From: an uncultured delta proteobacterium
GTDB lineage: Bacteria; Desulfobacterota; WTBG01; CAIYCZ01; CAIRTM01
Assembly (NCBI GenBank): GCA_963804955.1
Contig: CAWDSQ010000016.1
Coordinates: 125,285 to 189,284 of the forward strand
Direction of reading: 5' to 3'
Length of the DNA stretch: 64,000 nucleotides
Shown here: piece after piece, positions 4,853-63,896 of the stretch
How positions within the stretch are numbered: the first letter of the stretch is position 1
Layout: the number at the start of each line of letters is the position of its first letter
The notes under the pieces: generated by a model
What the model saw: only the letters and a program-made list of their open reading frames with translations
The model's database searches: none
What the model was told of the DNA's origin: nothing
Made by a program: the position numbers and the translations under genes

Positions 4853-4874
4853 CTCGCTTACAATCGCGAACCGT

Positions 4875-4972
4875 ATCTCCTTTCCGCCACGGGAGGCATG
4901 ACCTTTCGGGCCATGCCCTGTCGTCCGTCTGTTCACAAGCTTGGGCTTTTAGAATGCGGCCGGCTTGGAGAT
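4875..4972 (-). ncRNA. Moco/Tuco riboswitch aptamer (P3-less form)
   Basis: Minus strand CUCCAAG..P2..AGGG-CAUGGCC-CGAAA-GGUCAUG-CCUCCCGUGGCGGAAAGGAG, matching the Moco motif 3' core; lies upstream of a molybdoenzyme. Confidence 0.85.
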
Positions 4973-5080
4973 CCCTGCTGTTCCGAATCTCTGCCGCGTA
5001 TGCCTGCTCTGCCGCTACGAGACTTTACACTCTACCCTTACGCACCCGGGAGCGTCAACGCGTCGCCGGTAAAAAATGCG

Positions 5081-8738: not shown

Positions 8739-8757
8739 TCATTGGAGCAATCGACCA

Positions 8758-8855
8758 ATCTCCTTTCCGCCACGGGAGGCATGACGTCTTTCGGCATAAG
8801 CCCTATCGGTCGAACATCCATTGTTTTTTTACGGTAGGACTTTCGACTCGGAGAT
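8758..8855 (-). ncRNA. Moco/Tuco riboswitch aptamer (P3-less form) upstream of modABC
   Basis: Minus strand CUCCGAG-UCGAA..UUCGA..AGGG..GAAA..CCUCCCGUGGCGGAAAGGAG; 3' core identical to the 4875-4972 copy. Confidence 0.88.
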
Positions 8856-8875
8856 ATAGTTTGTAATTATTAGTA

Positions 8876-44500: not shown

Positions 44501-44516
44501 TACACTCCTGATTTCT

Positions 44517-44612
44517 AATTCGTTTCGTAAGAATCCGTTAGGAACAGGTCGTAAGACCGTCCCTACATATTGCACCGCATAGCCGTAAACTAAGTCGGAT
44601 TTAACGCGAATT
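44517..44612. repeat. REP-containing palindromic insertion between top6B and top6A
   Basis: GTAG-type REP (minus strand TGTAGGGACGGTC-TTAC-GACCTGTTCCT) flanked by imperfect IR AATTCG..AATCCG / CGGATT..CGAATT. Confidence 0.55.
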
Positions 44613-44649
44613 TGTGGTGATCGAAGGCGGGTTAGCACTCGCTTCATAT

Positions 44650-46284
44650 TCATTCTCTATGCCTCTCAAGTAACCCCGTGAGCGTCTCCACAACCTTCTG
44701 CTCTTCTTTCTCCGACAGGCCCAGTATTTCCCGCAGGCCGATGCCGATATGGGGCAGATAGGTCGAGATATAATCCTGCTTGCGCTGGGCATCAACCTCG
44801 TTTGCGGCGGTGCGAAAGAAAGAGCTTCAGCTTGCGGCCGCATTCCTGCAGGGCCTTGATGATTTCATCCTCTATTTCCGGATAGGCCGCTATGGCTTCC
44901 TTCGACTCGCTGGTGAACGGCACCCAGACCGATGCCATATGCACGACGATGGTCAGCGGCCCCACTGGCAGAGCGCCGCGGGGCTGCGTGAGGCCGTAGT
45001 TGCGCCAGTTGGTCTGCACCACCGACTGATACGAGCAGCAGGCGCCCTGCTGGTACAGCAGCGGCACGCGGTTGGCGATGCGCAGCACGCGCGCCGGGCC
45101 GTCAGCCTCCTGGCCCTGGCCGCCGATAGGCAAGGGCTGCCTCGATGATGAAGGGATTGCCGCGGTACACCGCAGGCGGCCGCGTGGTGGAGGCATAAAA
45201 ATCAGCAGGCACCACAGACCCGAGGCCCCGCACCAGCTGCTCTTCGCCGATCGGGGCCACGCAGTTGGTGGGCGGGTTCATGATCTTTGTTTTGCGTAAT
45301 GCCATCCATCAGCTTTACAAGCTCTGCATGGCCGATGCGCGAAACCGAGGCGCTGGATTTAAGCCCTGCTGCTGCGCAAATATCATCAGCCACCTTTTTT
45401 GATACGCGCGAAAATTCATGCTGCAAAAAACCGGCGAGATTGCGCGCCCGGGTGTCCTTGAGCATGGCCTGCATGACCCCCAGCTCGACGCCGAGCGGGT
45501 GGGGCTTGATCTCCTGCGTGTGCGCGGGCGGCTCCTGGGTGGAGCGCTCATAGATGATGGTTGCGCCACCGGGCTCAAGATAGGTAATCAGCACATGGGG
45601 GTTTGCGATGGCGGTCTGCCGCAGGTATTCATCAACCGACTGGCGGCCCTGCATGTGCTTGCCTTCAAGCTCGATGGCAACCTTTGTGCCGTGGTCAGCA
45701 TCCCACTCGATTTCCGTGTCGCTGACGATTTCGGGCTTGTTCTTCTTGGTGTCGATCTGGAGCCGGAAGTGGTGGGCCGGCTTGCCCTTGCCCGTGCGGC
45801 TGATGATCTCGACGGGCTTGCCCGTGGTCAGCATGCCGTACATGCCTGCAGCGCTGATGCCGATGCCCTGCTGGCCGCGGCTCATCTTGAGGCGGTGAAA
45901 TTTGGAGCCGTAGAGCAGCTTGCCGAAAATGTTGGGAATCTGCTTCTTCATGATGCCCGGGCCATTGTCCTGCACGCTTATGATATAGCGGTCCTTGCCG
46001 AGGTTTTTCACCTCAACGATGATGGCCGGCAGTATGCCCGCCTCTTCGCAGGCATCAAGGGAATTGTCGACCGCCTCTTTGATGGCCGTGAGCAGGGCTT
46101 TGCGGGGGCTGTCAAAGCCCAGCAAATGACGGTTCTTGGCGAAAAACTCAGAGACGGAAATCTCGCGCTGCTGCGCTGCCATGGATTCAGCGGTTGCATG
46201 CGCATGCTTGCGCTGCCGCGGCTTGCGCACTGCGGCGGCTGTTTCATCTTCCCGGTGCTTTATTGCCTGTGCTTTGTTTGCCAT
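44650..46284 (-). CDS. top6B: DNA topoisomerase VI subunit B (frameshifted)
   Basis: [72 protein letters not shown]. Confidence 0.95.
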
Positions 46285-46753: not shown

Positions 46754-49474
46754 TCATGCTCTGCTGTACCGTGATGCGAATCTTTTATCCACAGTTACTA
46801 CAACCATTGCCGCAAGGCATGCCCCGGCAATTTGCCCCCAGTGCGCAAAAGAAATCGGCGAGGTATGAAAGAGCCGGTTCATCAGCGGCAGATAGGTAAA
46901 GCCCAGCTGCAACAGAATCATAACGCACGAGCCGCCAAGTATCCAGGGGTTGGAAAAAAAATTCATTTTAAATATTGACCGGGTCAGCGACCTGCACTGA
47001 AACAGGTAGCACAGCTCGATCATCACGAACACATTGACCGCTATCGTGCGCGCGACTGCTATATCGCTGCCCTGCCGGAGCGCACTATTATACAGGGTAA
47101 ACGCTCCCGCCATCATCACCACGCTCACCAGCACGATGCGCTGAAGCAGCATCCGGGTGAGAATGGGGGCCTGCGGATTGCGGGGAGGCCGGTCCATCAG
47201 GCCGGCCTCCTTGGGCTCAAAGGCCAGCATCATGCCGAGCAGCACCGCCGTGGTCATGTTGATCCAGAGTATCTGCAGCGGCAGTATCGGCAGGCTCACG
47301 CCGGCAAACACCGCCGCGAGAATGATCAGGCCCTCGCCCATATTCGTGGGCAGGGTCCAGGTTATAAACTTGGTCAGGTTGTCGAATACGCCCCGGCCTT
47401 CCTCCACGGCAGCCTCGATAGTGGCGAAATTATCATCCGTGAGCAGCATGTCCGATGCCTCTTTTGCAACCTCGGTGCCGGTTATGCCCATGGCAATGCC
47501 GATATCGGCCTGCTTGAGCGCCGGAGCATCGTTGACGCCGTCGCCGGTCATGGCAACCACATGGCTGCGCGCCTGCAGCGCCTCAACGAGGCGCAGCTTC
47601 TGCTCAGGCGCAACCCGGGCAAACACCATGGTTTTTTCGACGGTATTGATGAGGTCCTCATCGGAAATCAGGCTCAACTCCTGGCCGGTCACGACCGGGA
47701 CAATCTCCGTGCCGCCGCGATAGGTTTGCTGCAGATTAAGCTCGCGCGCTATGGCATCTGCGGTTTTGGCATGGTCGCCTGTAATCATCTTGACCATGAT
47801 GCCTGCGCGCGCACAGGCGCCGATTGCCTCGCGGGCTTCGGGCCGCGGCGGATCGATCATTGCCTGCAGCCCGATAAAAGTCAAGCCGTGGGGTACGCCC
47901 GTATCGTCAAACCGCTTGCTGCCGGCCGGCAGGCTGCCCCGGGCAAAGGCAAGCACGCGCAGGCCGCGGGCTGCCAGGCTGTCTGCCTGCCGAACCAGGG
48001 CTTCGGTATTCAGGGGCTCTGACTCCCCCCGACCGTCCATCTGGCTGCTGCATTTCTCCAAAATCCGCTCCAGTGCGCCTTTCGCGTACAGCACCGGCTC
48101 CTGCCCCGCCCCCTGTTCATACAGGGTTGCCATATACTGCCGGGCCGATTCAAAAGGAATAACATCGATGCGATGCAGGCGGGCGTGAAGCTCCTGCTCG
48201 GAAAAACCGCCCTTACCTGCCGAAACATGCAGCGCCCCTTCCGTCGGGTCGCCCTGAACCACCCACTGCCCTTCGGCCTGCGCCAGCTGCGAGTCATTGC
48301 ACAGAGTTCCTGCAACAAGACACTCCTTGAGCGGGACGGAGCTGCCGCCTTCCAGCGGCTGTCCGTTCTCTTGCGCAATCTTTCCTTCAGGGGCATAGCC
48401 TGTGCCGCTTACAGCATAGGTTTCGCCGCCCGCATATACCGCCGTTACCGTCATCTGGTTCTGCGTAAGCGTGCCGGTTTTATCCGAACAAATGACCGTT
48501 GTGCTCCCGAGCGTTTCAACCGCCGGCAGCCGCCGAATAATGGCCCGCCGGCGGGCCATGGTGCGCACGCCCAGGGCAAGCGTTATGGTGACCGCAGCAG
48601 GAAGCCCCTCTGGTATCGCGCCCACGGCCAGGGCCACGGATGCCATAAACATGTCAAAAACGCTTTGCCCCTGCACAAGGCCGACCAAAAAAGTTACACC
48701 GGCAAGGCCGAGAATTATAAAGAGAAGCACTTTGCTGAACTGGGCGATCCGGCGCGTCAGCGGCGTCATCAGTTCGGCAGCGCTGGAAATAAGCTGTGAA
48801 ATGCGCCCCGTTTCCGTGGCGTCGCCGATGGCCACAATAACGCCCGATGCCTGGCCGTAGGTCACAAGCGATCCGCCATAGGCCATGTTCTTGCGGTCGG
48901 CCAGCACCGTATCTTCGGCCATTACCGCGCCTGATTTCTCAACCGGCACGGATTCGCCGGTCAGGGCCGATTCGTCGATCTGCAAATCGCGGACGGAAAA
49001 AAGGCGCAGGTCCGCCGGCACCTTGTCGCCCGACTGCAAAAAAACCACATCACCGGGCACAAGCTCTGCTGAAGGAATCCGCAGCTTTTTGCCCTCGCGA
49101 ATAACCGTGGCCTCGGTGGTGACCATGCGCTTGAGCGATTCTATGGCCTCTTCAGCCTTGGCTTCCTGAAGAAACCCGACAATGGCATTGACGATAACCA
49201 CGCCCAGGATAACGCCCGCATCGACCCACTCCTGCAGAGCTGCTGTTATCAGGCCGGCTCCCAGCAGAATATACACAAGCGGCTGATTGAACTGCAGCAG
49301 AAACCGGACAAAGGGGCTCTGCGGCTTCTTGGCGGTAATGCTGTTGGGCCCGAACTCTTTCTGCCGATGGCCAACATCAAACAGCGACAAACCGTGAGCC
49401 CGGCTGGTTTCATAAATTTTCTCAACTTCATCAAAAGGCATGTGATGGCAATGCCCGTATATGGTGCTACTCAT
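46754..49474 (-). CDS. Cation-transporting P-type ATPase (type II)
   Basis: [48 protein letters not shown]. Confidence 0.95.
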
Positions 49475-49622: not shown

Positions 49623-49748
49623 CTACTGCTTGCTGCTGTCCTGGTCTTTGCCCGCGGTTTTTCGGCTGGCAATGGCGATCCAGACAAAAACCCCGAAAAC
49701 TAAGCCGACAAGCACATACGCTATGATATCCTGTAAACTTATATTCAT
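49623..49748 (-). CDS. 41-aa single-pass membrane peptide (unannotated)
   Basis: GGAGG RBS; MNISLQDIIAYVLVGLVFGVFVWIAIASRKTAGKDQDSSKQ. Confidence 0.7.
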   Translation of the reverse strand: MNISLQDIIAYVLVGLVFGVFVWIAIASRKTAGKDQDSSKQ

Positions 49749-49926
49749 GACAGCCTCCATTGATTGAGTGTTGTAAAAATCAAACCACGACTATTGAATC
49801 GGTTCTTGTTCCTTGTTGGGAACCCGCACAGCCGGGAGCTGTTCCCGCCTGTGCGTTTGAATCCCCGGCCAGCTAAACTTCCCTTATTCTTTGCTCGTGC
49901 ATGTTCGGGCGGCTGTTCAGACAAAT

Positions 49927-50016
49927 AAAAAAGCCGCTGCCCGAAAGAAAGCCTTTCAGATAGCGGCCCGACTATCATTTTCCTCTATAAATTAATTTCT
50001 TAATTTATAGACCCGT
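49927..50016 (-). ncRNA. Na+-I (DUF1646)-like riboswitch with overlapping terminator, copy 1
   Basis: GGGUCU-hairpin-AGGAAAAU-GAUAGUCGGGCCGC followed by GCCGCUAUCUGAAAG..CUUUCGGGCAGCGGC-UUUUUU; class assigned from recalled consensus. Confidence 0.7.
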
Positions 50017-50032
50017 TTCCGTATTTTTTATC

Positions 50033-50061
50033 GCTATAGCCGCTCAGCGGCGGGTTGTCAA
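50033..50061 (-). promoter_or_regulatory. sigma70 promoter of riboswitch copy 1
   Basis: TTGACA-17bp-TATAGC. Confidence 0.65.
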
Positions 50062-50183
50062 TACCGTCTCACAGCAAACCGCGCGCCGAGCCGCAGGTTC
50101 TGCGAAAAAAAGCTTTTTAATTCATGATTAATCCCATCACCCCTCCTGGCAGACGGTTTTCTGATAATGGTAGCTGTGGGCAT

Positions 50184-50657
50184 TTAAGATTCACTGAATT
50201 CGGAACCGTTTCCGCCGGGAAGCGTGTTTTGCTTCCAGATAAATATGCTGATATTATCAGAATCAAACCTTACTTCGGCTGAAATGCGATCTGGTGATAC
50301 CTGCGGGACAAAACTGTTGTCTGCTGCAAGCGAATGGTCTTCATGATCATGCTCAGAAACAATGTTCCTGGTTTCTTTGTCGCCATGGGGGGGAAAACCC
50401 AAAAACACGCCTGGAATGTTTCGGCTTTTTTTTGTCTCTGCATCGCTTATAATCTTATAATATGAAATGTGCGCTTCTGTGTGCTCCAGCTTGTCCTTTT
50501 TGAGTGAAACAAAACTTTTCATATTCATGCTGTGGTTCATCAACGTATCGTTTTCCCGTGAAACCTTCTGAAAGAAAACCGCACCTATTCTTTCCCGGCA
50601 ACAGACAACCAGAAAAAACAGCATGAGTATCATGATTACCTTCGGGGCTAAGCGCAT
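50184..50657 (-). CDS. Hypothetical exported or membrane-anchored protein
   Basis: Hydrophobic N-terminus ending VVCC, His-rich EHDHEDH; first gene after riboswitch copy 2. Confidence 0.55.
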   Translation of the reverse strand: MRLAPKVIMILMLFFLVVCCRERIGAVFFQKVSRENDTLMNHSMNMKSFVSLKKDKLEHTEAHISYYKIISDAETKKSRNIPGVFLGFPPHGDKETRNIVSEHDHEDHSLAADNSFVPQVSPDRISAEVRFDSDNISIFIWKQNTLPGGNGSEFSES

Positions 50658-50810
50658 ATAATGCTCCCTCATATAGCCGGTTGAGTGGCGGTGCCGCCTT
50701 GCTGCCCAGGCTTTACCCTGTTGCCGGCTCACGGAAGTATTGCTCTCTTACAAAAGCTGTGTTCTTTTCGGCAGGATCCGGCATGAAAAATTCCCTGCTC
50801 TGATAAGCGC

Positions 50811-50901
50811 AAAAAAGCCGCTGCCTGAAAAATAGCTTTCAGATAGCGGCCCGACTATCACATCCCTCTATAAAATTAATTTCTTAATTTCATAGACCCG
50901 T
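50811..50901 (-). ncRNA. Na+-I (DUF1646)-like riboswitch with terminator, copy 2
   Basis: Near-duplicate of 49927-50016 with the same GAUAGUCGGGCCGC core. Confidence 0.7.
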
Positions 50902-50917
50902 TTCCATATTTTTCTAT

Positions 50918-50946
50918 ACTATAACTACTAGCCGGAGATTTGTCAA
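50918..50946 (-). promoter_or_regulatory. sigma70 promoter of riboswitch copy 2
   Basis: TTGACA-17bp-TATAGT. Confidence 0.7.
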
Positions 50947-51095
50947 TACATGCCGGCAAGCGCGCCGTCTATGGCCATGGCTATTTTCAGGAAATACCGC
51001 TGTGCTTTCGGCGGTTATCACGATGCGCCGTATGGACAGCAGCATGCTCCGCAGTCTGCTGATGCTTACAATAGAGCCTGTGATATTTTTAAAAA

Positions 51096-53087
51096 CTAGA
51101 GCGCCTTCACCTCTATCGTGCCTTTACATTCACCAAGGGTCACCTCAACATCGCCCGGCTCCAGGGCAAGGGGTTTTACAAAAACAATGGCGATGACAAC
51201 TTTTTTGCCGACTTTCAGCTTAAAAAGATGTTTGATGGCTTCGCTGTCCCAAACGGGCTTATCTGCTCTGACAAACTCCGTATCATCCTCGCCGATCAGA
51301 ACAAACCCCTTAATCGGCTCAAGCAGGCTCAGCAGTTTATGCAGCTTTTTCGGGATCACCTTCAGCGTGCAGGTTTCATTATCAGTGCCGTTATCAGCAG
51401 GAGTTACCTGGTTGCGCGGATTACCGGTTGTATTGTCGATAGTGTAGAGCTCTTTGCCGGCAGCCCCGTTATATTCGCATACCATAACCCTATAAATGGT
51501 TTCCGGCGTCAGGCCCGTCACCGTCGCACCGGTGCCTGTGCCGCTGTAGATGCTGTACCACCCGGTTGAGCCGATCTGGGAGCCTGCGCCGAACGCTGCG
51601 TCTGCTGCGTAGGTGGCATTGTCAGCGGGGCTGGCTGTGCCATTGTCGGCTTGCTTCATGAACACCGCGCACCGTTCTCCGTTGCCCCGGGTCCAGGAAA
51701 TATCCATCTGCTCCTGCTGCACATTTGAAAACACGATATCGCTCGCCTGCGTTGCCGGCGGCAGGAGTAGTTTGGCCAAAAAAACATCGTCGGTGCCGCT
51801 GTAGGCCCGAACGGGATCACCCCAGGCTGCATCGCTTTGGCCGGCAGCAAACACGTTGCCATTGTTGTGCAAGGCGATGCCGTATGGGTAGTCCGTGCCG
51901 CTGCCGCCGAAAAAGGTGTTCCAGGAAAGAGCACCGTTAGGGGCAAGCCTTGCAATAAAAGCGTCCTGCCCTGCTATATGCGGCCATGCGGGTGTTCCCC
52001 AGGTGGCCCCGCTGCTTCCCGCAACAAAAACATTGCCGGAAGGGTCAACGGCTATGGCATCACCTTCATCATACTCGCTGGTGCCAACAAAGGTATGCCA
52101 GGCAAGAGCGCCGCCTGCGTCAACCTTTGCCACGAAGGCATCATCGCCTCCGGCATAGGGCAGCACCGGCGTTTCGCTCCAGGGGCCGCCCGAGTAGCCG
52201 GTCACATACGAATTGCCGCCGCTGTCTGCGGCTATGCCGTAGCCCTCTTCATAGCTTGTGCCGCCCAAAAACGTGTTCCAGATAAAAGTGCCGTTATCGG
52301 CAATTTTTACCACGAACGTGTCTTCATCGCCCGCATACGCCCGCACCGGGCTGCCCCATGTGCCGGTACTGAATCCCGACACATGCAGCCTGCCACTGCC
52401 GTCGCGGGCCAGATCATAGCCCCAGTCAGTCCCGCTGCCGCCCAGAAACGTGTGCCAGAGGCGGTTGCCGCTGCTGTCAAGCTTAGCCACGAAACCATCA
52501 CTGCCGCCGGTGTATGCACGAAGGGGCGTTCCCCAGGTGCCCTTGCTGGTCCCTGCAACATAGACATTGCCGCTGCCGTCCACCGCGATGCCGTAGCCGT
52601 AATCATCCTCTGTTCCGCCCATAAACGTATTCCAGAGAAGGTTACCGCTGCCGTCAAGCTTGGCCACAAAAGCGTCGAGCGCGCCAGCCCAGGGTTGCAC
52701 CGGCCCGGCCCACGTTGTCGAGCTGTTTCCCACGACGTAGACATTGCCGCTGCCGTCCACGGTAATCTTGCGGGATTCATCGCCGAAAAAATCGCCAAGG
52801 AAGGTGTTCCAGACCAGCGTGCCATTGTCGGCAATTTTAGCCACAAAAGCATCGCTTGCCCCGTTATATATCCGCACAGGGCTACCCCAGGTGGCGTTGC
52901 TGATACCTGCTACATGCGCATAGCCGCTGTCGTCTACGGCCACCCCGTAGCTCCGGTCGCCGCTGCTTTGGCCGAGGAATGTATTCCAGGCAAGTGCTGC
53001 CGCGCCTGCGCTGCAATGGGTGCTGAAAAGGAAGAGCAAGGTAAAAAAAACAGCGCTGGTACCCGCACAATATCGTTTGCTGTTCAT
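51096..53087 (-). CDS. Secreted SBBP beta-propeller repeat protein with an FN3-like module and a basic C-terminal domain
   Basis: Signal peptide; seven WNTF.GG...D.GY.IAVD.SGNVYV.G repeats. Confidence 0.85.
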   Translation of the reverse strand: MNSKRYCAGTSAVFFTLLFLFSTHCSAGAAALAWNTFLGQSSGDRSYGVAVDDSGYAHVAGISNATWGSPVRIYNGASDAFVAKIADNGTLVWNTFLGDFFGDESRKITVDGSGNVYVVGNSSTTWAGPVQPWAGALDAFVAKLDGSGNLLWNTFMGGTEDDYGYGIAVDGSGNVYVAGTSKGTWGTPLRAYTGGSDGFVAKLDSSGNRLWHTFLGGSGTDWGYDLARDGSGRLHVSGFSTGTWGSPVRAYAGDEDTFVVKIADNGTFIWNTFLGGTSYEEGYGIAADSGGNSYVTGYSGGPWSETPVLPYAGGDDAFVAKVDAGGALAWHTFVGTSEYDEGDAIAVDPSGNVFVAGSSGATWGTPAWPHIAGQDAFIARLAPNGALSWNTFFGGSGTDYPYGIALHNNGNVFAAGQSDAAWGDPVRAYSGTDDVFLAKLLLPPATQASDIVFSNVQQEQMDISWTRGNGERCAVFMKQADNGTASPADNATYAADAAFGAGSQIGSTGWYSIYSGTGTGATVTGLTPETIYRVMVCEYNGAAGKELYTIDNTTGNPRNQVTPADNGTDNETCTLKVIPKKLHKLLSLLEPIKGFVLIGEDDTEFVRADKPVWDSEAIKHLFKLKVGKKVVIAIVFVKPLALEPGDVEVTLGECKGTIEVKAL

Positions 53088-53382
53088 GGCTGTTCCCCTT
53101 TCTTAGAATCTATTTCACAAAAAGTTGAGCGGCACGAGGCATGCTTTTTCCCCTGCGTACCGGTGTTTACTTGCCTCCCACCATCGGAGCAATTGTGTTA
53201 AGCACCCTGCGCGCAACTGCCCGAAGTGACGGGCTGCTCTCAAGGGCGGCATTGCTGCTGTCGGCATTCCTGTAATAAATTTGAACCGCCAAGCGGCCAA
53301 CCGCGCGCCGAGCCGCGGGTTCTGCGAAAAAATTTAAAAACCATTTCGACTCCCTCGTCGGGCCAGACAATTAAAGAAGGTT

Positions 53383-53435
53383 CCGGGGGTCAAATCGTTA
53401 TAGTGACAATGCACAAATAACGATTTGACCCCCGG
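53383..53435. repeat. 19-bp perfect inverted repeat (REP or terminator) after the FG-GAP gene
   Basis: CCGGGGGTCAAATCGTTAT..ATAACGATTTGACCCCCGG. Confidence 0.7.
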
Positions 53436-53443
53436 TTTTTAAC

Positions 53444-56252
53444 TTATCTCGTTTCAATCATGGGCAGCAAAAGGTCAACAAGTGCTTTTGCTTTCCGCTG
53501 CAGACCACCATTGTCTTCCAACAAGCCGTCAAATACAGGAGCAAGGGTATAATAGAGCCGTATCATAAGCCTGCCCGGCGCCGTTTTAGCCAGGACCTCG
53601 TCGCGATAGCGGTAGAACTGCTCGATCTCTGCGGACTCCTCACCATACATTTTCGCAAGGGGGCATTTTTTTCCTACCAGTATTGTCACCTTGGCAGGCG
53701 CGCTCACGCTGACGCCATCGCTTGCCGTATAGGTGAAGCTATCGTTTCCCATGAAGCCTTTTTCCGGCGTATAGGCAAACGACCCGTCAGCCTGCAGCGT
53801 CAGCTCACCATGCGCGGGCTGGGTTACAATTGCTGCCGTGAGATTCTCGCTGTCTGCGGCGGTGTCATTGTCAAGAACGCCGGGCGCGGCAATGGTAAGC
53901 GTTTTGTTTTTTCGTATTGCATAGGCGTCTGCCAGGGCAAGGGGCGCCGTGTTTGTAATTTGGCTGCCCGTAGCCGGGTTTGCAGTCAGGTAATTCGGAG
54001 CCTCTGACTGCGAACTCTTGAAAGCATAGACCGTTACATGGTAGGTGGCGCCGGGCGTAAGACCGGTAACGGTAACCGAACCGCCGCTGCCGCTGTAGGC
54101 AGACAAAAGTATCCGTGCCGAGCTCAGAGCCCGACCCGAATGAGGGATTTGCCGCATAGGATGTGCCGTCAACAGGTTCGGCAGAAACCGCACTGCCTTC
54201 CCGTATCAGCACGAGGCTGCCAGCGCCGCTGGCCGGTGTCCAGCCCACGGTCATGGCGAGCGGATGAAACACCGGTAAAGGTTACTTCGCTTGCCTGCTG
54301 TGCCGGCTCATCTGCCACTACTCTGAAAATATAGGCTGAGCCCTGGTCTGCTTGTGCGGAAATATCTGCTTTATAAGCCCCCACAACCACCGTATCGGCG
54401 CTCACGGCAACGGCTTTTCCGAAATAATCCTCGAACTCTCCGTCTGCAGCAGAAAGCTTTGCGGTCTGAGAAGGGTTGCCCGACCAGCCCGCAGCAGGCT
54501 TCCGAAACACATAGGCCGCGCCCCTCGCTTGGCCGCTGATGGCAGCATAATGGGCTCCGACCACCACGGCATCGCCATTCACTGCAACGCTTGAGCCGAG
54601 CCTGTCGTTTGCCGCGCCATCCGAAGCGATAAGTTTTGCATTCTCTGTCGCATGGTCCCAGCCGGTCGAAGGCCGTACAAAAACATAGGCTGAGCCCTGT
54701 TTAGCTTTTGCTCCTATCATGGCCTGGTCTGCCCCGACAACAACGATATCACCTTCCACGGCAACGGAAACGCCGAAATAATCATTTGCCGCACGATCAG
54801 ATGAGGACAGTTGTTTGCCGGTTGCAGCGTACCAGCCATCAAGGGGCTTTTCAAATACATAGGCAAGCCCGGATGCTGTAATCGTCGGAATCGTATCGCG
54901 TGAAGCACCTGCCACAATTGTATCGCCGCTTATGGCTACGGCTGTACCGAAACGATCCCCCGCGTCGCCGTAGGGAGATAAAAGCCGTTCGCCAACGACA
55001 GTGCCGGCCCAACCGCCGGAGGGCTTTTCAAACACATAAATTGCGCCCTCTGAACTTTGATACCCGTAGGCCCCGACAACAATAGTATCGCCGCTCACGG
55101 CAACGCTATAGCCAAAACAATCATCCGCTGCGCCGGTTGCTGCAATGAGCTTTACAGTATATGACGATGTCGTAGCCCAGCCGCTCTCAGGTTTTGTAAA
55201 CACATAGGCTGAGCCCTGATTCGTTTTCGCGCCAATGTCATCGTAGGGTGCTCCCACCACCACCGTATCGCCGCTCACGGCAACGGATATGCCGAAACCA
55301 TCATTTGCCGATCCCTCAGAGGTCGTAAGTCTGGCAACATATGACGCTGTCGTAGCCCACCCACTCCGCGGGTTTTGTAAACACATAGGCTGCGCCCAGA
55401 TCTGCATTTGCAGAATACGCGCCCAACCACCACCGTATCGCCGCTCATCGCAACGGAATAGCCGAAACAATCGAATGCCGCGCCATCGGAGGCCGTGAGT
55501 TTGGCCTGCTGTATGACCGGGTCGATATACACAGGATAGCTCAGTCCTGTGTCATCAGCACAGATATGCAGCATACCGCCCTGCGCCTCAAGCCATGCCG
55601 GTGCCTCGCGGCCATTGGCATCCCGCACCACCAAACCGCTGTAGCGATACAAAGCAGAACCATCGACTCTCGTAAGCATTGCCCCGAGACCATCGGCATC
55701 AACACTGCCGCGTATGCGCCATCAATGAACAGACAACCCTCAACGCGCCGTTGCCAGCCTTCGCGGAGGCTTCTGCAATCGTAAAGCCCTGCTGCAGGCC
55801 CAGCGGACCATTTATATACCATTCGCTGACAGAACCGCGAGTGCTGACAACTATATTCCCATAAGACTGCGGCACAGCTGCCGGCAGCAGGCGCAAGCTC
55901 CTCACCATGGCCCCAGGCCACCGGCTGCAGCAAAATGTGCTGCCCGCCCGAGCCTATTTCAACGCCGCCGGAACCGAAACGGGCCGTGAGGCCGTGGCCG
56001 GTATTATCTGCCTGCACAACATCACCATACGGACGCGCATGATAGCCAGACTGGTCATGGCCGATGGCTGCCGATACGGCATACCGGGCCTCCATTGAAA
56101 GGCTTTCCAAACCCTGCTTTACCGCAGCCGTCGACGGGACCGGCCAGACAAGCAAGGCCAAAAAAAGAAGTGCGCTTCGGAGTAAAAAACGGGTACGCAG
56201 CCATGGTGCGTTCTGGCCTGGAAAATAATTCGCTACGGTCTTGTGTTTTCAT
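53444..56252 (-). CDS. Secreted FG-GAP repeat protein with FN3-like, Ig-like and CFI-box-CTERM-like domains (frameshifted)
   Basis: KL.ASDG...D.FG.SVAVSGDTVVVGA..GSAYVF repeats; APGVLDND..PAHG.L....DGSF.YTP..GF.G.DSFTY; C-terminal CP..KMYG..S.E....YRDEVL..T..G...I.LYY. Confidence 0.85.
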
Positions 56253-56293
56253 TCTGTGCTCTCCCTATCCAAAAACCACACATTTCCTACAGT

Positions 56294-58141
56294 TTAAAAA
56301 CCTCTGATACTCATGCTGCCCGTGCAGCCGCCCACGCTCACCTCATAGGTGTCGGTCACCTGCAGCAGCGATGCCTTAATGCGGACAAGGGCCAGCATAA
56401 AGCGCTTCTTTTTCCCCAGCGGAAACTGAAACAGCGCTTCGGCGGCTTCGTCAGGGAATACTATGGGGGTGTCTTTGGCGAACTGCATGCCGTCGGGCGC
56501 GCGAAACAGAAACAGCCGGACCGGCCGTATGATGCTGAACAGCTTGCTCAGCCGCCGGGGCAACAGTTTTACGGCGCAGGTTGAGCAGTTGTCCCACGCC
56601 AGCGGATCGTCATCGTCGCAGTCGGGCCCCAGGCAGTCAAGCCCGAGGCCGTAGCCGTCGCCGTCCTCATCGACGCAGCCCGGAGGAATCGTGGTCGTGG
56701 TTGTCGTTGAAACAGCGGGCGCCGGGAACTTCCACAGACCGTAGCCTTCCGTGCCGCTTGCATAGAAATAAATACTGTCGCCGATGCGCGCAAAAGAGGC
56801 CGGGGAACTGGAGCTGGAGCCGCTTGCAAGGTCGGCTACACGCACGGTGCCCGCCTCGGTGCCGTCGCTCTTCCACAGCTCTTCGCCGCTGGTGCCATCA
56901 TCGGCTCTGAAATAGAGCATGTCATTGACCACGATGCTGCCCTCATGGCCCCAATAGCTATCACCATCTCCGGGGTTGATATCTTTCACCATCTGGGTGC
57001 CGGCTTCCGTACCGTCGCTTATCCACAGCTCGCTGCCATGCACACCGTCGTAAACCCCGAACAGCAACTTGCTTGCCCACTGCTCTCATGCCATAGGGGC
57101 TGGCATTGGAGGCATCAGGAACAATATCCTTCACCAGATGCGTGCCGCCCTCTGTTCCGTCGGTCACCCACAGCTCCTTGCCATGAATTCCATCATCTGC
57201 CACAAAAAAAAGCTTTTCGTCATTAACATTGGTAAATTCCGGCGTAAGGGTCCAGTCGTTCAGGCCGGGCTCGTCCGTAGCGGGGTTTATTTCCTTCACC
57301 ATATACGTGCCAGCCGCCGTTCCGTCACTGCGCCACAGCTCCCGGTTATTGTTGGACATGTCGCTCGGGTCCGAGCTGTTGTCTGCGGCAAAATAGAGTA
57401 TGCCGCCCATCTCCGTAAGATAGGTCGGGCCATAGTCTGCCGAAGACCCCGGCTGTATGTCTTTAACAATGACGGTGTTTTCCGGGGTGCCGTCTGTCTT
57501 CCATAGTTCGGCGCCGCTCGTGCCGTCATTGGCGACAAAAAACAGCACTCCGTTAACGAGGGTGAACTGGTCGGGGTCTGAGGCGCTGCTGCCGGGGCGG
57601 ATATTTTTAAAAAGCGTTGTGCCGCCCGGCGTGCCGTCTGTCCGCCACAGCTCATAGCCCGTGGTGCCGTTGTCGCCGGCCGTATAAACATAGCCGTTAT
57701 AGGCCAGAATTTTCCCCCAGTTGGAAGGCACGCCGCTGCCGGTACCCGATCTGATGTTCTTGTATCAGCCCGGTGCCCGCTTCCGTGCCGTCGCTCTGTC
57801 CAGAGCTCGGAGCCGTAGGTACCGTTGTCGGCCACGAAAATAAGCTCAGACCCCAGGGGGCAGAGTCCAAGATTGTTGTAATACTTGATCGCGCTCCCGG
57901 TAGCTCCTGCCGTAAGATCCCGGACCATGTTCGTGCCGTCTGGAGTGCCGTCGCTTGTCCAAATTTCCCGGCCGGCACCGCCACCCGTTCCTACAAAAAA
58001 CGCCCTACCGCTCACGTCAAGTGGCGTGCTTTGTATGGTAATGCTTCCTTTTACCAGTTCCGGTGTTTGCGCCTGAGCGCCTGCGGTGAACGCGAGTAGC
58101 AACAGACAAAGCGAAATTCCTGCCTTAAGAATGTTTTTCAT
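56294..58141 (-). CDS. Secreted ELWxxDGT repeat protein with Thr linker, DxDGDG/DCDD motif and basic C-terminal domain (frameshifted)
   Basis: Repeated ELW.[ST]DGT..GT..VKDI; TTTTTT; DEDGDGYG..GPDCDDDD. Confidence 0.88.
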
Positions 58142-58196
58142 ATGCCATCACCTTTAAAAATAGTGTTTTTTTGCTTTCTCGTGCAGCGCCCGGTAT

Positions 58197-58270
58197 AAAA
58201 GCCGCTCTCTGCCCGAAGCAGATAGCGGCTTGACGATCAAGGTAGCGCCCCTCCAACCTTGATACACCAC
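58197..58270 (-). ncRNA. Variant of the Na+-like riboswitch/terminator cassette upstream of the ELWxxDGT gene
   Basis: GGUU..GAUCGUCAAGCCGCUAUCUGC-UUCGG-GCAGAGAGCGGCUUUU. Confidence 0.45.
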
Positions 58271-58447
58271 AGTCGCCCTTATCTTTGCCTTAGTTTATTG
58301 TTAGCTTGCATATTTTTATATACGCTTGGCTACAAAAAACACAAGAAAAAAAGCATTCCCGGGGTGAAAAATGAAGGGGTTAGGGGAGCTTCCTAAGGCA
58401 GCGCTGAACCTCACCGCAGCAAGCTTCGGGATTTTATTCTTAAAAAA

Positions 58448-59135
58448 TTAACCTTGAAGCGTATTGACGCGCACCTGCTGTGCCTGCTGCAGAGCATCAT
58501 ACAGGGCCTGATTATCGAAAAACCGCTCTATCGCTGAAGAGAGGGCCTTGTTTATTTCTCGCTGCATAAGGGCTTCTGAAAAATACACATGCTGCAGCGA
58601 GGATTCGGCATCAACGACCGTCCTGTAAATGACGCGCCTGCTGCGCACATCAGCCACTACCACCCGCAGCGAGACCTGTGTTCTATAGCGGGTAACCCCC
58701 ATGTCTTCCCAGGCCCTGGCTTCAAATTCATCAATGCTGCCGCCAATGGCAAACTGCCCCCACTGGCCGTCAATGCTCTCCGGCTTCATATCCCAGCCCG
58801 GCAGCCCTCCGTACACAGAGTGGCCGGATGAAAAAAGGTATGTTTTCATCGCCGCAGCAACAGCATATCCCGGCAGTAGAGCGGTGCTGTTGATCGGCAG
58901 TTCCGCGCCGTCGGCAGCAACACGGGTTCCCAGCCGCTGCTTGTCCGCCACGGAGTCGCGCGCATCGACAAAAATGCAGGCGCTAAACATGCTGCCGGGC
59001 TGCAGCAGCTCATTTGCTTGTGCCGGCTCCTGCGGTCTGATAATGCAGGGACAGGTTATAGTGGGTTGCACAGCCCGCTCCCAGGAGGATCAGGCAGAAA
59101 AGTATTACGCTGTTTATTGCTTTGCGTTTTGCCAT
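58448..59135 (-). CDS. Uncharacterised lipoprotein (frameshift after the signal peptide)
   Basis: LLGAG-C lipobox; VDAR, GSIDEF, INKALSSAIE; YajG-like fold is a guess. Confidence 0.65.
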
Positions 59136-59174
59136 GGCGCCGTTGAACTCCAAAAGTATTATTAAAGGTGGTTA

Positions 59175-59722
59175 TTACCGTTGCGTATACAGCTGTATCT
59201 TTTGCCCGTCATACTCAAGTGTCACCTGCTTGTCTTCAATGGCAACCAGGCGGTAATCGCCGAAACGGTCGCCAACGGAAACAATGCGCGTATCGGTGGT
59301 GCGGGAGGCGATAGCGGGGGCGGAAGGACTTCTGCTTCTTATGGTTCTTTTGCTTTTTCTGCTTTGTTTGGTTTGGTTTGCTTGCTGCTGGTTTTGATGA
59401 CCGGAACGGCGGTGCTCCGCCGAAATGAAAGAACCGCAAGCTTTGTGTCTTCGCTTATGATGGTGCCGCACAGCTCCGGCAGCATTGCCTTGCTGATCTT
59501 TTTTTTGGCCGGTGTTTTAGGTGGTGTCACCCATTTTTTTCGCGTGGGGCTGAAAAGATTTTTTTCTATCACAAGAGTAAAGTCTTCCGCCTGTGAAGAG
59601 ACACTTCCGAGGAAAAAGAAGCAGCAGCCAATAACAAAAATTTTTGTGCAGTGGTTTTTCATAAAATCGCTTTTTAGTTTAACCCGCGTCCGCAGACACC
59701 TGTTTGATTGCCCCATCAGCAT
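59175..59722 (-). CDS. GspC/PilP-like (type II secretion HR domain) protein (frameshifted)
   Basis: TM, IEKNLFSPTR, L.GTIIS...LAVL, VSVGDRFGDYRLVAIEDKQVTLEYDG. Confidence 0.6.
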
Positions 59723-59790
59723 AAATACACCTTCCTGTAAATCCCGCTCAAACAAGAATTCGACAGGTGAACTTCTTTCTGTTTCGAAGC

Positions 59791-59869
59791 AAAAGACGCA
59801 ACCTGAAGCACTGGCTCCAGATAGCGGCCCGACTATCCTGTTCCTTCGGGATTTTTAACCCGAACCCAT
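59791..59869 (-). ncRNA. Na+-I (DUF1646)-like riboswitch with terminator, copy 3
   Basis: GGGUU-CGGG..CCCG-AAGGAACAG-GAUAGUCGGGCCGC then GCUAUCUGGAGC..GCUUCAGGUUGCGUC-UUUU; the hairpin sequence differs from copies 1 and 2 but the structure is kept. Confidence 0.7.
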
Positions 59870-60255
59870 GCGAAGGATGCAAAAAATTTTTTGTGCAGGT
59901 TGCGACTTATTTATCACTGCCAAGCTGCTCTACCGGATCCCCCCTGTTGTTATGTTCTGTTGTTATGTTTTTTACCAAAAAACCATTCCTGCACAAATAG
60001 CAGAAGCCTATACGCATACTCTTCAATCTAATAAAATTGTTTCCAAGCCGAGGAGGGGAATAAAAAAGTCTCTTTCTCCGATAAAGCTGCCGCGCTGCTG
60101 TCCTTTTATTGGCGCTCCTGTCACCATTGCACTCCCTCGGTTTATAATTAAAATAATAATTAGCTATGGTGATTTTGTCAATTGATTTTTATTCCAATAG
60201 TTGCTATACAAATCAATATAACCATAAAGGCCATTATCAGCAAGGGGAACGCTTG

Positions 60256-60777
60256 ATGGGGGACAAAAACATGATTATCGCCAGCACGGTCGACAATCTG
60301 CGCCGCGTGCTTCAGGCCATTCACGAATATTCGAAAAAAGCGGAATACGCCACCGGACTCACCGGGCCTCAGCTCTGGGCGATCAAGGTTATTGCAGAAA
60401 ACGCCTCGATCTGCGTTTCAGATCTGGCTGCTAAAATGTATCTTCATGCTGCAACCGTCATCGGCATTCTTGACCGGCTCGAAGACCGCGGTCTCATTAC
60501 GCGTATCCGTTCCCGTAATGACCGCCGCTTTGTTGTCGTTGAGCTGTCAGAACAGGGCAAACAGCTGGTGAAAAATTCTCCTGAGGTTGCCCAGGGGTTG
60601 CTGGTAAAAGGGCTCGAGCAATTACCGATGCATTTGCTTGAAAGCGTCTCGGATGGTCTGGAAAAAATGGTTGAACTGCTGGGCGCAAGCACTGTTCCTC
60701 CCCGCATGATGCTCTCGCCGGAAATCAATATGCCCGCAAGAAAGGGCAGTGGAAGGCCTCGCAAGCAACAGGAATAG
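60256..60777 (+). CDS. MarR family transcriptional regulator
   Basis: GLTGPQLW..DLA..MYL..ATV.GILDRLE.RGLI.R.RS..DRR. Confidence 0.92.
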   Translation: MGDKNMIIASTVDNLRRVLQAIHEYSKKAEYATGLTGPQLWAIKVIAENASICVSDLAAKMYLHAATVIGILDRLEDRGLITRIRSRNDRRFVVVELSEQGKQLVKNSPEVAQGLLVKGLEQLPMHLLESVSDGLEKMVELLGASTVPPRMMLSPEINMPARKGSGRPRKQQE

Positions 60778-60780
60778 AGC

Positions 60781-62277
60781 ATGAATGCCTTAAAATTAAA
60801 AGAGTATCTAGCGCATGTTATGCATGGGGAGAAACTGATCGTCGTTTCCAACCGTGAACCGTGCCTGCACGAACTATCAGATGGTGTGATTAAGGCCGTC
60901 CGCCCGGCAAGCGGCATGGTAACAGCTCTTGAGCCTATTCTGAAAGCTGTCGGCGGCATTTGGGTCGCTCATGGTTCGGGTTCAGCAGACCGGTCTGTTG
61001 TTGACAGCCGGGATAGAATCCGGCTCCCCGAAGAACGGCCGGAATATGTGCTCAGGCGTGTCTGGCTTTCCCGCAAGGAAGAAGATGGCTATTATTATGG
61101 CCTGTCCAATGAAGCGCTCTGGCCCCTGTGCCATATTGTGTATACGCGGCCGCATTTTTCCCGCAGTGATTGGGAGACATATAAAACCGTCAATCAGCGC
61201 TTTTGCGATGCCGTGCTTGAAGAAGCCGGGGGCAACCCGGCAATTATCTTTATTCAGGACTATCATCTTGCGCTTCTGCCGCGCCTGCTCAGAAACAACA
61301 GGTCTGATCTGAAAATCATGCAGTTCTGGCATATACCCTGGCCCAATAAGGAGGCTTTCCGTATATTCCCCTGGGGGGAGGAGCTTCTGGATGGTCTGCT
61401 CGGCAATGACATTCTCGGCTTTCACATACAGTACCACTGCAATAATTTTCTCGATACCGTCGACCGGGGTATAGAAGCCCGCGTTGATTATGAACATTTT
61501 CGGATTTTTCGCGGCGGCAGGCCGACCTGCGTGAGGCCCTTCCCCATCAGCGTTGATTTCGAGCAGATCGCTGCCGATGCAAAATCGCCTCTGGTAACTG
61601 CAAGAAAAAAACGCCTTCTTAAGGCGCTCGGAGAAGCAACATATAAAACCAGGCTTTTCGTGGGTGCTGACCGTATCGACTACACCAAGGGTATACCGGA
61701 AAGACTCCGCGCTTTCTCTTTGATGCTGCAGCGGCATCCGGAGTTGCACGGCAAGGTGACTCTGGTGCAGCTTGCCGCGCCCAGCCGCACCCACATTGAA
61801 ACCTACAGAAATTTAAATGATGAGCTGGACGATCTTGTTGACGAAATCAACTGGCAGCACATGTCTGAGGATTGGGCGCCCATCCGGCTTATGCGCGCAC
61901 ATCATGACTATTATGATGTGCTGGCAGCCCACCGCATGGCTGATGTGCTGCTGGTAACCTCGCTGCATGACGGAATGAATTTGGTTGCTAAGGAATTCAT
62001 TGCAGCTCGCTCGGACAATGACGGTGTGCTTGTTCTGTCGCAGTATACGGGCGTTGCCCGTGAGTTTCCCGATGCTGTGATGGTTAATCCGTTTGATCCC
62101 GACCAGCTTGCCGATGCCCTTTATGATGCCTATATGATGCCGGAAATCGAGCGGACCCAGCGTATGCGCCGCATGAGGCCTCTGTTAGCGAAAAACACAA
62201 TTTTCGATTGGGGTGCTAAAATTTTCGAAACGCTTGAAGGCCTTCCCGCTTGTGAAAAAAGCACCTCTTCGTTATAA
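60781..62277 (+). CDS. otsA: Trehalose-6-phosphate synthase (GT20)
   Basis: [48 protein letters not shown]. Confidence 0.95.
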
Positions 62278-62280
62278 AAT

Positions 62281-63060
62281 ATGGAAAGCAGCGCTATGAT
62301 TAATAACCTGTGGATTTTTGATTTTGACGGAACGCTATCTGATATCGTCCCCGACCGGCATGCAGCGAGCCTCCATCCCTTGTGTCGCACAATGCTTGAA
62401 CAACTTGCTGCAACCGAAGGATTTTATACCGCCATCCTGTCAAGCCGAACTCTTGACGACCTGCTGCCGCGTATTGATATCAAAGGTGTTGCCCTGGGCG
62501 GCAATTGCGGCTCTGAATGGCTTTTGCCGGAGGGAACGCGCACAAGCCTCTCTCAAGAACGGTTGACATCGCTTCAGGCAGCACGTACCCTGCTTATTCC
62601 TGAGCTCCAGCATATAGACCAGATCGAAGGCGTGGAGATAGAGGATAAAAGGCTATCCATTGCAGTGCATGTCAGGCAGGTCTCGGGCAAGTACCGGCGC
62701 TTTATTCAGCGGCATCTGGAGTTTCTAAAACTTAATTATAATCTGACAATATACCCGGGCCCCGAAGCGTATGAAATTATGCTCCTGCCCGATATACATA
62801 AATCCAATGGTCTCGTAAATTTGTGCGATCTTATCGGATTTAATATTAATACTGGTTTTCTGCAGTATGCCGGCGATGACAGCCATGATGCCAAAGTCAT
62901 GGAGCGGGTTCTCCGGCTTGGCGGAATGGCCTTTACAGTCGGGCCAGAGCCCCTGGTGCCGGGTGCAGCAGTGGTTGCAAATCCCGAAGCCCTTGCCGGG
63001 GAGATACTAAAACTCATCAGCCCGGGGGCTCCCCGCCCTTCAGCACAGGCTGTGAGGTAG
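62281..63060 (+). CDS. otsB: Trehalose-6-phosphate phosphatase (HAD IIB)
   Basis: FDFDGTL, LSSR, EDK..SIAVH.R, YAGDD..D. Confidence 0.88.
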   Translation: MESSAMINNLWIFDFDGTLSDIVPDRHAASLHPLCRTMLEQLAATEGFYTAILSSRTLDDLLPRIDIKGVALGGNCGSEWLLPEGTRTSLSQERLTSLQAARTLLIPELQHIDQIEGVEIEDKRLSIAVHVRQVSGKYRRFIQRHLEFLKLNYNLTIYPGPEAYEIMLLPDIHKSNGLVNLCDLIGFNINTGFLQYAGDDSHDAKVMERVLRLGGMAFTVGPEPLVPGAAVVANPEALAGEILKLISPGAPRPSAQAVR

Positions 63061-63120
63061 GGCCGCGCTTATATGGAAGCACACGGGTTCAAAACAAGCC
63101 GGAAAGGACGACTGGTTGCC

Positions 63121-63896
63121 ATGAAAAAGGAAAAACTCTGGCTGTTTGATTTTGATGGCACGCTTGCCGCTATCGGTCACAACTATCATGCAGCGCGGCT
63201 TCACCCCGACTGCCAGGAAATGCTGATTATGCTCATAGAAAAATTTCCCGGCCGTGTCGCTGTCGTTTCAAGCAGGCCGCTGCGGGATCTGGTCTCAAGA
63301 ATACCTGTGCCCGGACTTTTTTTAGGCGGGAGCAGCGGCTTGGCCTGGCTGCTTCCAGGTGGAGAAAGAAAGATGTTTCACGCTGTTTTTGAAAAACACC
63401 TCAACAAAAACCGCAAGGCGGTACTGCTGAAAACACAAGAACTGGGGCTGCTGTACGGCGTTGACACAGAAGACAAACTGTCCTCCATTGCGCTTCATGC
63501 TCCGCATCTGCCCCGGCATATACAGAGGCATATTTTTAATACCGCTAAAAATTGCGGAAAAGCACATGCCTGTGAGGTTTTTGAGGGTCCCGAGTCCGTT
63601 GAAATTTATTTTTTGCCGGCGAACGTTAGGCTTGCCGTTATTCCGAATCTTTGCTCCCTGCTCGCTCTTGACCCTGGGGCTGTTAGTTACCTATGCCGGG
63701 GACGATGAACATGATATTCCGCTTATGCAGTGGATACTGCAGCATAATGGTTGTGTTTATCTGTCGGCTATCAGTCCCTTGTTGCTGGCGGACAGGTCAT
63801 TCAGAACGCCTCGCTGCTGGCGCAGGTTTTTATCCGCTTATGCGAAATTCCGGGCAGCGCTGCTGCATAAAGGAGAAGATCCATGGAGCCATTTGA
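63121..63896 (+). CDS. otsB: Second trehalose-phosphatase paralogue (frameshifted, end approximate)
   Basis: FDFDGTL, VSSR, EDK.SSIALH; YAGDDEHD in the +1 frame. Confidence 0.75.

Follow-up and report, generated by a model that had tools for sequence, protein, structure and literature searches.

Background

RNAs of the nhaA-I class have been described as Li+-I riboswitches that mostly precede nhaA (356 of 944 in the table of White et al. 2022, PMC9646797), and that paper also gives otsA as an occasional target (16 of 944). The same work reported 'rare variants' of nhaA-I that carry an intrinsic terminator, occur in Deltaproteobacteria only, and precede genes of unknown function, associations that are absent from the Li+ classes (PMC9646797). 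One of these variants, from Desulfobulbus propionicus, responds to Na+ in vitro by switching ON (dissociation constant, KD, about 1.4 mM) and was named Na+-II. The tested RNA has a C at position 54, where most nhaA-I RNAs have a U, and a C54U mutant loses its Na+ selectivity and responds to Li+, Na+ and NH4+ (PMC9646797). Comparison of the wild-type and M4 templates (supplement 1 of PMC9646797) places position 54 directly 5' of the CGGGCC loop, and we refer to this nucleotide as the specificity base. Here we describe three nhaA-I leaders in a stretch of 64,000 nucleotides (nt) from an uncultured delta proteobacterium (contig CAWDSQ010000016.1, positions 125,285 to 189,284), referred to throughout as the window. 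The class itself, its terminator-type variants, their targets of unknown function, the tandem arrays and the link to trehalose are all already in print.

Identification of the nhaA-I leaders

A scan of the whole window at the Rfam gathering threshold placed three leaders, all on the minus strand, in the nhaA-I class (RF03057, gathering score 37 bits; Table 1). A fourth copy, on another contig of the genome (36 contigs searched, 87% complete), scores 38.2 bits against RF03057 and is also above the gathering score. The motif consists of GGGU, a P1 hairpin, AGG, and a P2 hairpin with an invariant CGGGCC loop, and the alignments, folds and open reading frames (ORFs) place it in the 5' leader on the coding strand. 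An 18-mer common to the leaders, GATAGTCGGGCCGCTATC, occurs exactly three times in the window compared with 0.03 occurrences expected from 100 dinucleotide-preserving shuffles; four matches were reached in none of the 100 shuffles. An earlier note on this DNA, made from the sequence alone, had recognised three leaders with a common layout, and the scores against RF03057 confirm this. However, it had assigned them to the DUF1646/Na+-I class. A permissive Rfam search (expectation value E<=10) of positions 49700-51100 and 59600-60800 returned nhaA-I and no other plausible family. Because the DUF1646 covariance model is silent even at this threshold and only nhaA-I is listed, the earlier class assignment is wrong, and we rejected it.

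Table 1. Features of the window and, where stated, of another contig; positions are those of the window.
Feature	Position	Strand	Details
nhaA-I aptamer, copy 1	49958..50014	-	RF03057, 44.6 bits; order GGGU, P1, AGG, P2 with CGGGCC loop; fold
nhaA-I aptamer, copy 2	50841..50899	-	RF03057, 38.5 bits; near-duplicate of copy 1; fold
nhaA-I aptamer, copy 3	59819..59867	-	RF03057, 41.5 bits
Specificity base (5' of CGGGCC loop)	49971 (copy 1), 50854 (copy 2), 59832 (copy 3)	-	U in each
Intrinsic terminator, copy 1	49927..49967	-	hairpin 49933-49967 using 3' half of P2, U6 at 49927-49932; -21.0 kcal/mol
Intrinsic terminator, copy 2	50811..50850	-	hairpin 50817-50850, U6 at 50811-50816; -19.0 kcal/mol
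Terminator-like hairpin, copy 3	59791..59828	-	-17.2 kcal/mol; short interrupted U run (U4), weakest of the set
Promoter-like site, copy 1	50033..50061	-	TTGACA, 17 nt, TATAGC; ends ~18 nt before aptamer; read by eye
Promoter-like site, copy 2	50918..50946	-	TTGACA, 17 nt, TATAGT; 11/12 consensus; ends 18-19 nt before aptamer
Decayed nhaA-I-type leader	58197..58280	-	56 nt before ELWxxDGT-repeat gene (start 58141); alignment
Single-pass membrane micropeptide, 41 amino acids (aa) (MNISLQDIIAY...)	49623..49748	-	first gene after copy 1; GGAGG 5 nt before ATG
Type-II P-type cation ATPase	46754..49474	-	Pfam E1-E2_ATPase, Cation_ATPase_N/C
Exported/membrane-anchored protein, 157 aa, hydrophobic N-terminus ...LVVCC	50184..50657	-	sole gene after copy 2; GAGGGAG before ATG
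Exported protein, 183-aa type	59175..59722	-	first gene after copy 3; AGGAAGG before ATG at 59722; intact homologue P0010
Lipoprotein, ~228 aa, signal peptide ...LLGAGC	58448..59135	-	second gene after copy 3; homologues P0003-P0009, 65-96% identical
MarR-family regulator, otsA, two otsB-like genes	60166..63708	+	divergent from copy 3; Pfam
Frameshift-split genes	window 53444-59722; G000 contig 20, 67093-68347 (nhaA)	- (window)	frame comparison
Topoisomerase VI A and B genes	43290-46284	-	B split in two frames: HATPase 45202-46284, transducer 44792-45196
Moco/tungsten riboswitch aptamers (RF01055)	8744-8865, 4861-4982	-	54.8 and 44.0 bits

Structure and proposed mechanism

The sequence of P1 is wholly different among the copies, AU-rich in copies 1 and 2 (CUAUAAAUU...) and UCGGG... 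in copy 3, and pairing is kept in each, as the earlier note had described. Alignment of 13 aptamers with MAFFT and RNAalifold recovered P2 only; because P1 varies in length and was misaligned, this result was left aside as evidence on P1. Folded alone, the leader of each copy forms P1 and P2. When the downstream sequence is included, the minimum-energy fold consists of P1 and a hairpin followed by a U run, with GCCGCU..., which spans the 3' half of P2 and part of its loop, as the 5' arm of the hairpin. These full-length folds agree with the previous suggestion that GCCGC doubles as the 5' arm of a terminator. The resulting intrinsic terminator overlaps the 3' side of P2 as in Na+-II, and is strong in copies 1, 2 and 4 (-25.6 kcal/mol and U7 in copy 4), whereas the U run of copy 3 is weak. 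The same-genus counterpart of copy 3 (L010) has U6. Promoter-like sites precede copies 1 and 2; the former is not listed by the promoter scan because its second hexamer ends in C. The sole promoter consensus match for copy 3 is ~290 nt upstream.

Based on these folds we propose that transcription would begin ~10 nt before the aptamer from a sigma-70-type promoter. Without ligand, the 3' half of P2 (GCCGCUAUC...) would pair with downstream nucleotides to form the intrinsic terminator, and the transcript would end ahead of the gene. Binding of a monovalent cation would stabilise P2 and block the terminator, allowing RNA polymerase to proceed into the gene. That the switches work in the ON direction is proposed from their likeness to the D. 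propionicus RNA tested earlier. The ligand would most likely be Na+, with Li+ possibly accepted as well. In that case a small set of envelope and membrane proteins would make up a salt-stress regulon: the micropeptide (perhaps together with the P-type ATPase), an orphan exported protein, a pair consisting of an exported protein and a lipoprotein, and a large lipoprotein encoded on the other contig. The idea of a monovalent-cation ON switch had been raised in the earlier note and is retained here, given the nhaA-I membership and the overlap of aptamer and terminator. It is nearly certain that the leaders are terminator-type ON switches of the nhaA-I family as far as family and design are concerned. 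The complete reading, with Na+ as the probable ligand and Li+ as a possible second one, we consider probable.

Ligand and alternative interpretations

Several observations weigh against the reading of these leaders as Na+-responsive terminator switches. The specificity base is U in all four copies of the genome, which is the Li+-I state, and the C 5' of the CGGGCC loop that constitutes the sole published specificity determinant of Na+-II is absent. The same U occurs in every copy that was matched by script in relatives of the bacterial family, in which 7 of 17 genomes, the source genome included, have RF03057 matches. In addition, the terminator of copy 3 is weak, and two of the switch target genes are frameshifted in the assembly. 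As the first genes are all of unknown function, the make-up of the regulon offers no separate hint as to the ligand. With a U at the specificity base, one defining feature of Na+-II fails, and the ligand is therefore not readable from the sequence. The assignment to Na+ may still be right, given the Na+ sensing demonstrated for nhaA-I variants with terminators (PMC9646797). The copies described here close P1 with a Y-R pair (GGGUC.../GGGUU...) and the D. propionicus RNA does so with C-G, compared with G-C in the Rfam consensus and in all three validated Li+-I constructs (supplement 1 of PMC9646797). Beyond this pair, inspection by eye revealed no further nucleotides that separate nhaA-linked from other aptamers.

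Validated Li+-I RNAs likewise have U at the specificity position, the Rfam family is the same, and U-type terminator-bearing aptamers precede nhaA in other genomes (L081, L088, L089). The leaders might accordingly be ordinary Li+-I riboswitches, that is, Li+-selective ON switches with terminators that control proteins mitigating lithium toxicity. However, none of the four copies precedes nhaA or another antiporter gene, though nhaA is present in the genome together with two CitMHS genes (at E<=0.1 no RNA family matched at any of the three), and true Li+ switches lack the association with genes of unknown function seen for terminator-type variants (PMC9646797). P1 is closed by a pair like that of the Na+ variant, and four copies before envelope proteins are more in keeping with a frequent stress than with a toxic ion that is seldom met, which makes Li+-I switches rather unlikely here. 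It is also conceivable that the leaders respond to monovalent cations or ionic strength in general, with Na+, Li+ and NH4+ acting alike, as in the C54U mutant of the D. propionicus RNA. All copies have the U of this mutant within a scaffold like that of Na+-II, the 100 terminator-bearing aptamers from named genomes among the matches listed (see below) divide into 87 with U and 13 with C, and the genes downstream of the matches listed are related to osmotic stress rather than to a specific ion. The model for such a broad sensor is nevertheless one engineered mutant in a different sequence background, and natural U-type RNAs (Li+-I) are selective in vivo (PMC9646797); we regard this interpretation as distinctly improbable.

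Two further interpretations concern the nature of the leaders rather than their ligand. The consensus models of DUF1646 and nhaA-I resemble each other, as its authors remark (PMC9646797), which could suggest that the leaders are Na+-I riboswitches. This is refuted at the level of the covariance models, nhaA-I alone being listed at the leader sites, and is practically inconceivable. The leaders might also be dispersed, repeated leader and terminator modules that sense nothing and operate without ligand control, and one copy, at 58197-58280, has indeed lost the conserved loop and retained its terminator. Against this, the invariant aptamer core is retained in four copies while P1 co-varies, and the nhaA-I family is conserved across many phyla, always 5' of genes, so that non-sensing modules are very improbable. 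Terminator-type nhaA-I switches, probably responding to Na+, remain the preferred reading.

Genes downstream of the switches

The list of downstream genes given in the earlier note (a micropeptide and an ATPase, an exported protein, and a GspC-like gene with a lipoprotein) is essentially right as judged by the ORFs. The first gene after copy 1 encodes a 41-aa membrane micropeptide that belongs to no Pfam or NCBIfam family. Homologues with 37-45% identity and seven invariant positions are found in four other genomes of two genera, where they sit 0.4-1.8 kb downstream of nhaA-I switches. A profile search of 42 genomes of the class gave six strong matches in five genomes, plus one weak match, and all six strong matches are on the switch's own strand and downstream of it. 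As a conserved switch target, this genus-restricted membrane peptide family is modestly new.

The P-type ATPase gene begins 150 nt after the micropeptide gene with no terminator seen between them, and from this arrangement co-transcription of the two is only inferred. By homology the ATPase appears to be a type-IIA, Ca-pump-like enzyme. It scores below the cut-offs of the NCBIfam PMR1/SERCA-type models; among solved chains, SPCA1 and Listeria LMCA1 come closest. The idea that the ATPase is a conserved target of the switch was rejected. In relatives, the matches to the ATPase (61% identity and lower) are on contigs other than those with RF03057 matches, and in relatives the micropeptide closes the operon with no ATPase after it; switch control of the ATPase is therefore possible but not conserved. 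The claim that the targets are not transporters stands for the first genes, none of which encodes a canonical ion transporter, but is right only in part, since a type-II P-type cation ATPase follows the micropeptide, although its orthologues in relatives have no link to a switch.

The sole gene after copy 2 encodes a protein of 157 aa, exported or anchored in the membrane, that belongs to no Pfam or NCBIfam family and has no usable match in the ESM Atlas. It is a near-orphan with one relative in a word-based search and three matches among 1.84 billion representatives. Its description as His-rich was overstated, as the translation contains 7 His in 157 residues.

Copy 3 precedes two genes. The first, of the 183-aa type, encodes an exported protein with a C-terminal beta domain that is faintly like GspC/PilP, and it is split by a frameshift in a 9-nt repeat coding for KQT. 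Its match to NF041515 (GspC_delta) has an E of 7e-4 and 19.4 bits against a cut-off of 150, far below what membership in that family requires, and the intact homologue P0010 has no Pfam family. A 30-nt stretch of the gene (59672-59701, minus strand) is 93% identical to positions 232-261 of the same-genus L010; it is part of the N-terminal extension of the protein (..CLRTRVKLK..), which is present in P0010 too. The second gene encodes a lipoprotein and is split by a one-base frameshift of the assembly after the signal peptide, where comparison with P0003 reveals one extra base. Two short-read contigs (4 and 2 letters different, about 99% identical) are each 1 nt shorter over this break; the short-read cover by related strains is patchy and was used solely for this 1-nt difference in length. 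An ESM Atlas search with P0003 returned only unnamed lipoprotein clusters from Thermodesulfobacteriota, and an AlphaFold2 model of the lipoprotein has a mean confidence (pLDDT) of 55.7, too low for a fold search. Since a decayed leader and terminator follow the lipoprotein gene, the copy 3 unit probably ends there. Beyond it are genes for secreted repeat proteins with ELWxxDGT, FG-GAP, Big_9/cadherin-like and SBBP repeats.

Copy 4 is followed by a lipoprotein gene with 479 codons or more. All four switches would therefore control only uncharacterised exported or membrane proteins, and the canonical antiporters are without a switch. For the 41-aa membrane peptide family, the near-orphan exported protein and the lipoprotein pair, this provides a functional lead of the kind 'induced by cation stress'.

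A decayed fifth leader

A match to the 18-mer with three mismatches (58221-58238) identified a further leader of the nhaA-I type. It aligns with the part of the other copies that comprises P2 and the terminator, with the loop CAAGCC compared with CGGGCC and one changed base in P2. The P2-like stem and the terminator are kept, a new hairpin is present upstream, and the Rfam nhaA-I model gives no match at this site at E<=10. The same decayed form is found in the same-genus genome G004 (L168, about 150-225), where pairing of the upstream hairpin is kept through a two-sided change. In another genome of the genus, G006 (L169, about 1480-1545), P2 and its loop are intact before a homologous gene and there is no recognisable P1. 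The decayed copy documents the erosion of such leaders and is modestly new.

Genomic context

The trehalose genes are divergent from copy 3, as described in the earlier note, with Pfam identifying a MarR regulator, otsA, otsB and a second otsB-like gene on the plus strand. No RNA family was found on the plus strand before MarR/otsA at E<=10, and otsAB has no aptamer of its own; otsA is a neighbour of the switch here, not its target. The MarR/otsA/otsB layout is conserved in G004 at 78% identity. The 'salinity-response island' proposed in the earlier note is a putative one. Among the matches listed, related switches in other genomes do precede genes for trehalose, MscS and Na+/H+ antiporters.

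Genes split between frames include both genes after copy 3, the gene for topoisomerase VI B, those for the repeat proteins, and, elsewhere in the genome, nhaA. The splits most likely stem from indels in the assembly, with real pseudogenes as a less likely alternative. In contigs of two public runs, sequence resembling 54469-55678 (about 91% identical) is joined directly to 50951-51693. This 50951/55678 join indicates another gene order, or a paralogue, in related strains. A look through the public runs for RNA data sets that contain this DNA listed none. The window also contains two Moco/tungsten riboswitch aptamers and, for a bacterial genome, genes for both subunits of topoisomerase VI (Table 1).

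Distribution of nhaA-I-type switches

One genome per species was scanned with the pattern GGGT..AGG..GNTAGYCGGGCCGCTANC, which gave at least 118 stretches and, after duplicate removal, at least 136 matches in 117 loci. Most of P2 is specified by the pattern, so that the matches are a biased sample of the nhaA-I family. A terminator was called from a T run 20-75 nt after GCCGC together with a hairpin of -10 kcal/mol or better. All counts in this section are among the matches listed. The 136 matches comprise 87 with U and a terminator, 23 with U and no terminator, 13 with C and a terminator, 8 with C and no terminator, and 5 that are cut by the end of the locus. Record titles (80) name former deltaproteobacterial groups in 57 cases and other phyla in 19, including Elusimicrobia, Actinomycetota, Nitrospirota and Clostridia, with 4 unspecified. 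These counts indicate that terminator-type variants are neither rare nor confined to Deltaproteobacteria, and that most carry U. The C/U distinction given in the literature does not follow the terminator-type architecture, and the U state of most terminator-type variants is modestly new.

Downstream ORFs were chosen mechanically (at most two per cluster, longest non-overlapping, at least 75 aa, start within 1300 nt), so that some are not the true first gene. The resulting 110 ORFs from 74 clusters were scanned against Pfam and tallied by hand. CitMHS/NhaD-like proteins are encoded downstream in 10 of the 74 clusters and NhaA in 5, all of U type (none of the 11 C-type clusters); NhaB is found in a single cluster. 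Trehalose genes (GT20, TreT and amylase-type) and small winged-helix proteins each occur in 5 clusters, large secreted repeat proteins (TIG, RCC1/TSP3, HYR, Vps62-like) in 4, Peripla_BP_6 in 3, and MscS in 2. No scanned ORF has a Pfam family in 19 of the 74. To judge from these annotations, the downstream genes read as a sodium or osmotic regulon with many unknowns, and the tally would favour Na+ or general ionic stress over Li+ alone.

Several individual loci are of note. Terminator-bearing aptamers occur in tandem (L042, L026, L068, L033; G001 contig 14, corresponding to L009, L014 and L017), in runs of four (U type) and of three (U type as well as C type) and in C-type doublets. The available part of a 2022 review lists one Li+-I triplet and no tandem Na+-II (PMC9481103). 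An nhaA-I-type aptamer is located 61 nt before an NhaB-family gene (L025 2501-4240, plus strand; Pfam E 1e-219), a pair that stands against the statement in PMC9646797 that nhaA-I RNAs are never associated with nhaB. In L061, L071, L079, L092 and L098, the U-type terminator-bearing aptamer is followed first by a gene for a small winged-helix protein (89-108 aa), so that a transcription factor would come under control of the switch. The gene that comes first after tandem switches in relatives (L137 5773-6252, minus strand; L141 275-772, plus strand; L139 6047-6631, minus strand) encodes a membrane-anchored protein of ~160 aa (..GVIGAEIGRIAR..) that belongs to no Pfam or NCBIfam family and is another recurrent unknown target.

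A broader and more speculative proposal is that U-type terminator-bearing nhaA-I RNAs are the main form in anaerobic sediment lineages and act as general cation or ionic-strength sensors of an envelope programme, including lineage-specific micropeptides, one of which may be regulin-like and act on a P-type ATPase. We consider this proposal unlikely as a whole. If true, the micropeptide may modulate the neighbouring Ca-pump-like P-type ATPase as regulins act on SERCA.

Comparison with described riboswitches

The leaders share a two-hairpin outline, monovalent-cation ON logic and frequent terminators with the Na+-I riboswitches (DUF1646 motif; White et al. 2022, PMC9337991). However, Na+-I has a separate covariance model, the one that does not match the leaders at E<=10. 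Both covariance-model membership and the U at the specificity position are common to the leaders and Li+-I (nhaA-I motif, RF03057; PMC5737381, PMC9646797). The validated Li+-I members precede nhaA and act mostly on translation, whereas the copies described here use terminators and none is before an antiporter gene. The P1-closing pair also differs, being G-C in three validated Li+-I constructs and Y-R here.

The closest described system is Na+-II, represented by the D. propionicus 'hypo' RNA. The two agree in Rfam family, in the order of parts (GGGUY, P1, AGG, linker, and P2 with a CGGGCC loop), in a terminator built on the 3' arm of P2, and in the Y-R pair that closes P1. Both precede hypothetical genes in a deltaproteobacterial (Thermodesulfobacteriota) lineage; the first genes here are without a Pfam or NCBIfam family, and expression platforms nearly identical to those of the leaders are found in records whose titles read Thermodesulfobacteriota or 'delta proteobacterium'. 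The difference is the base 5' of the loop, which is C in the tested Na+-II RNA and U in the leaders described here.

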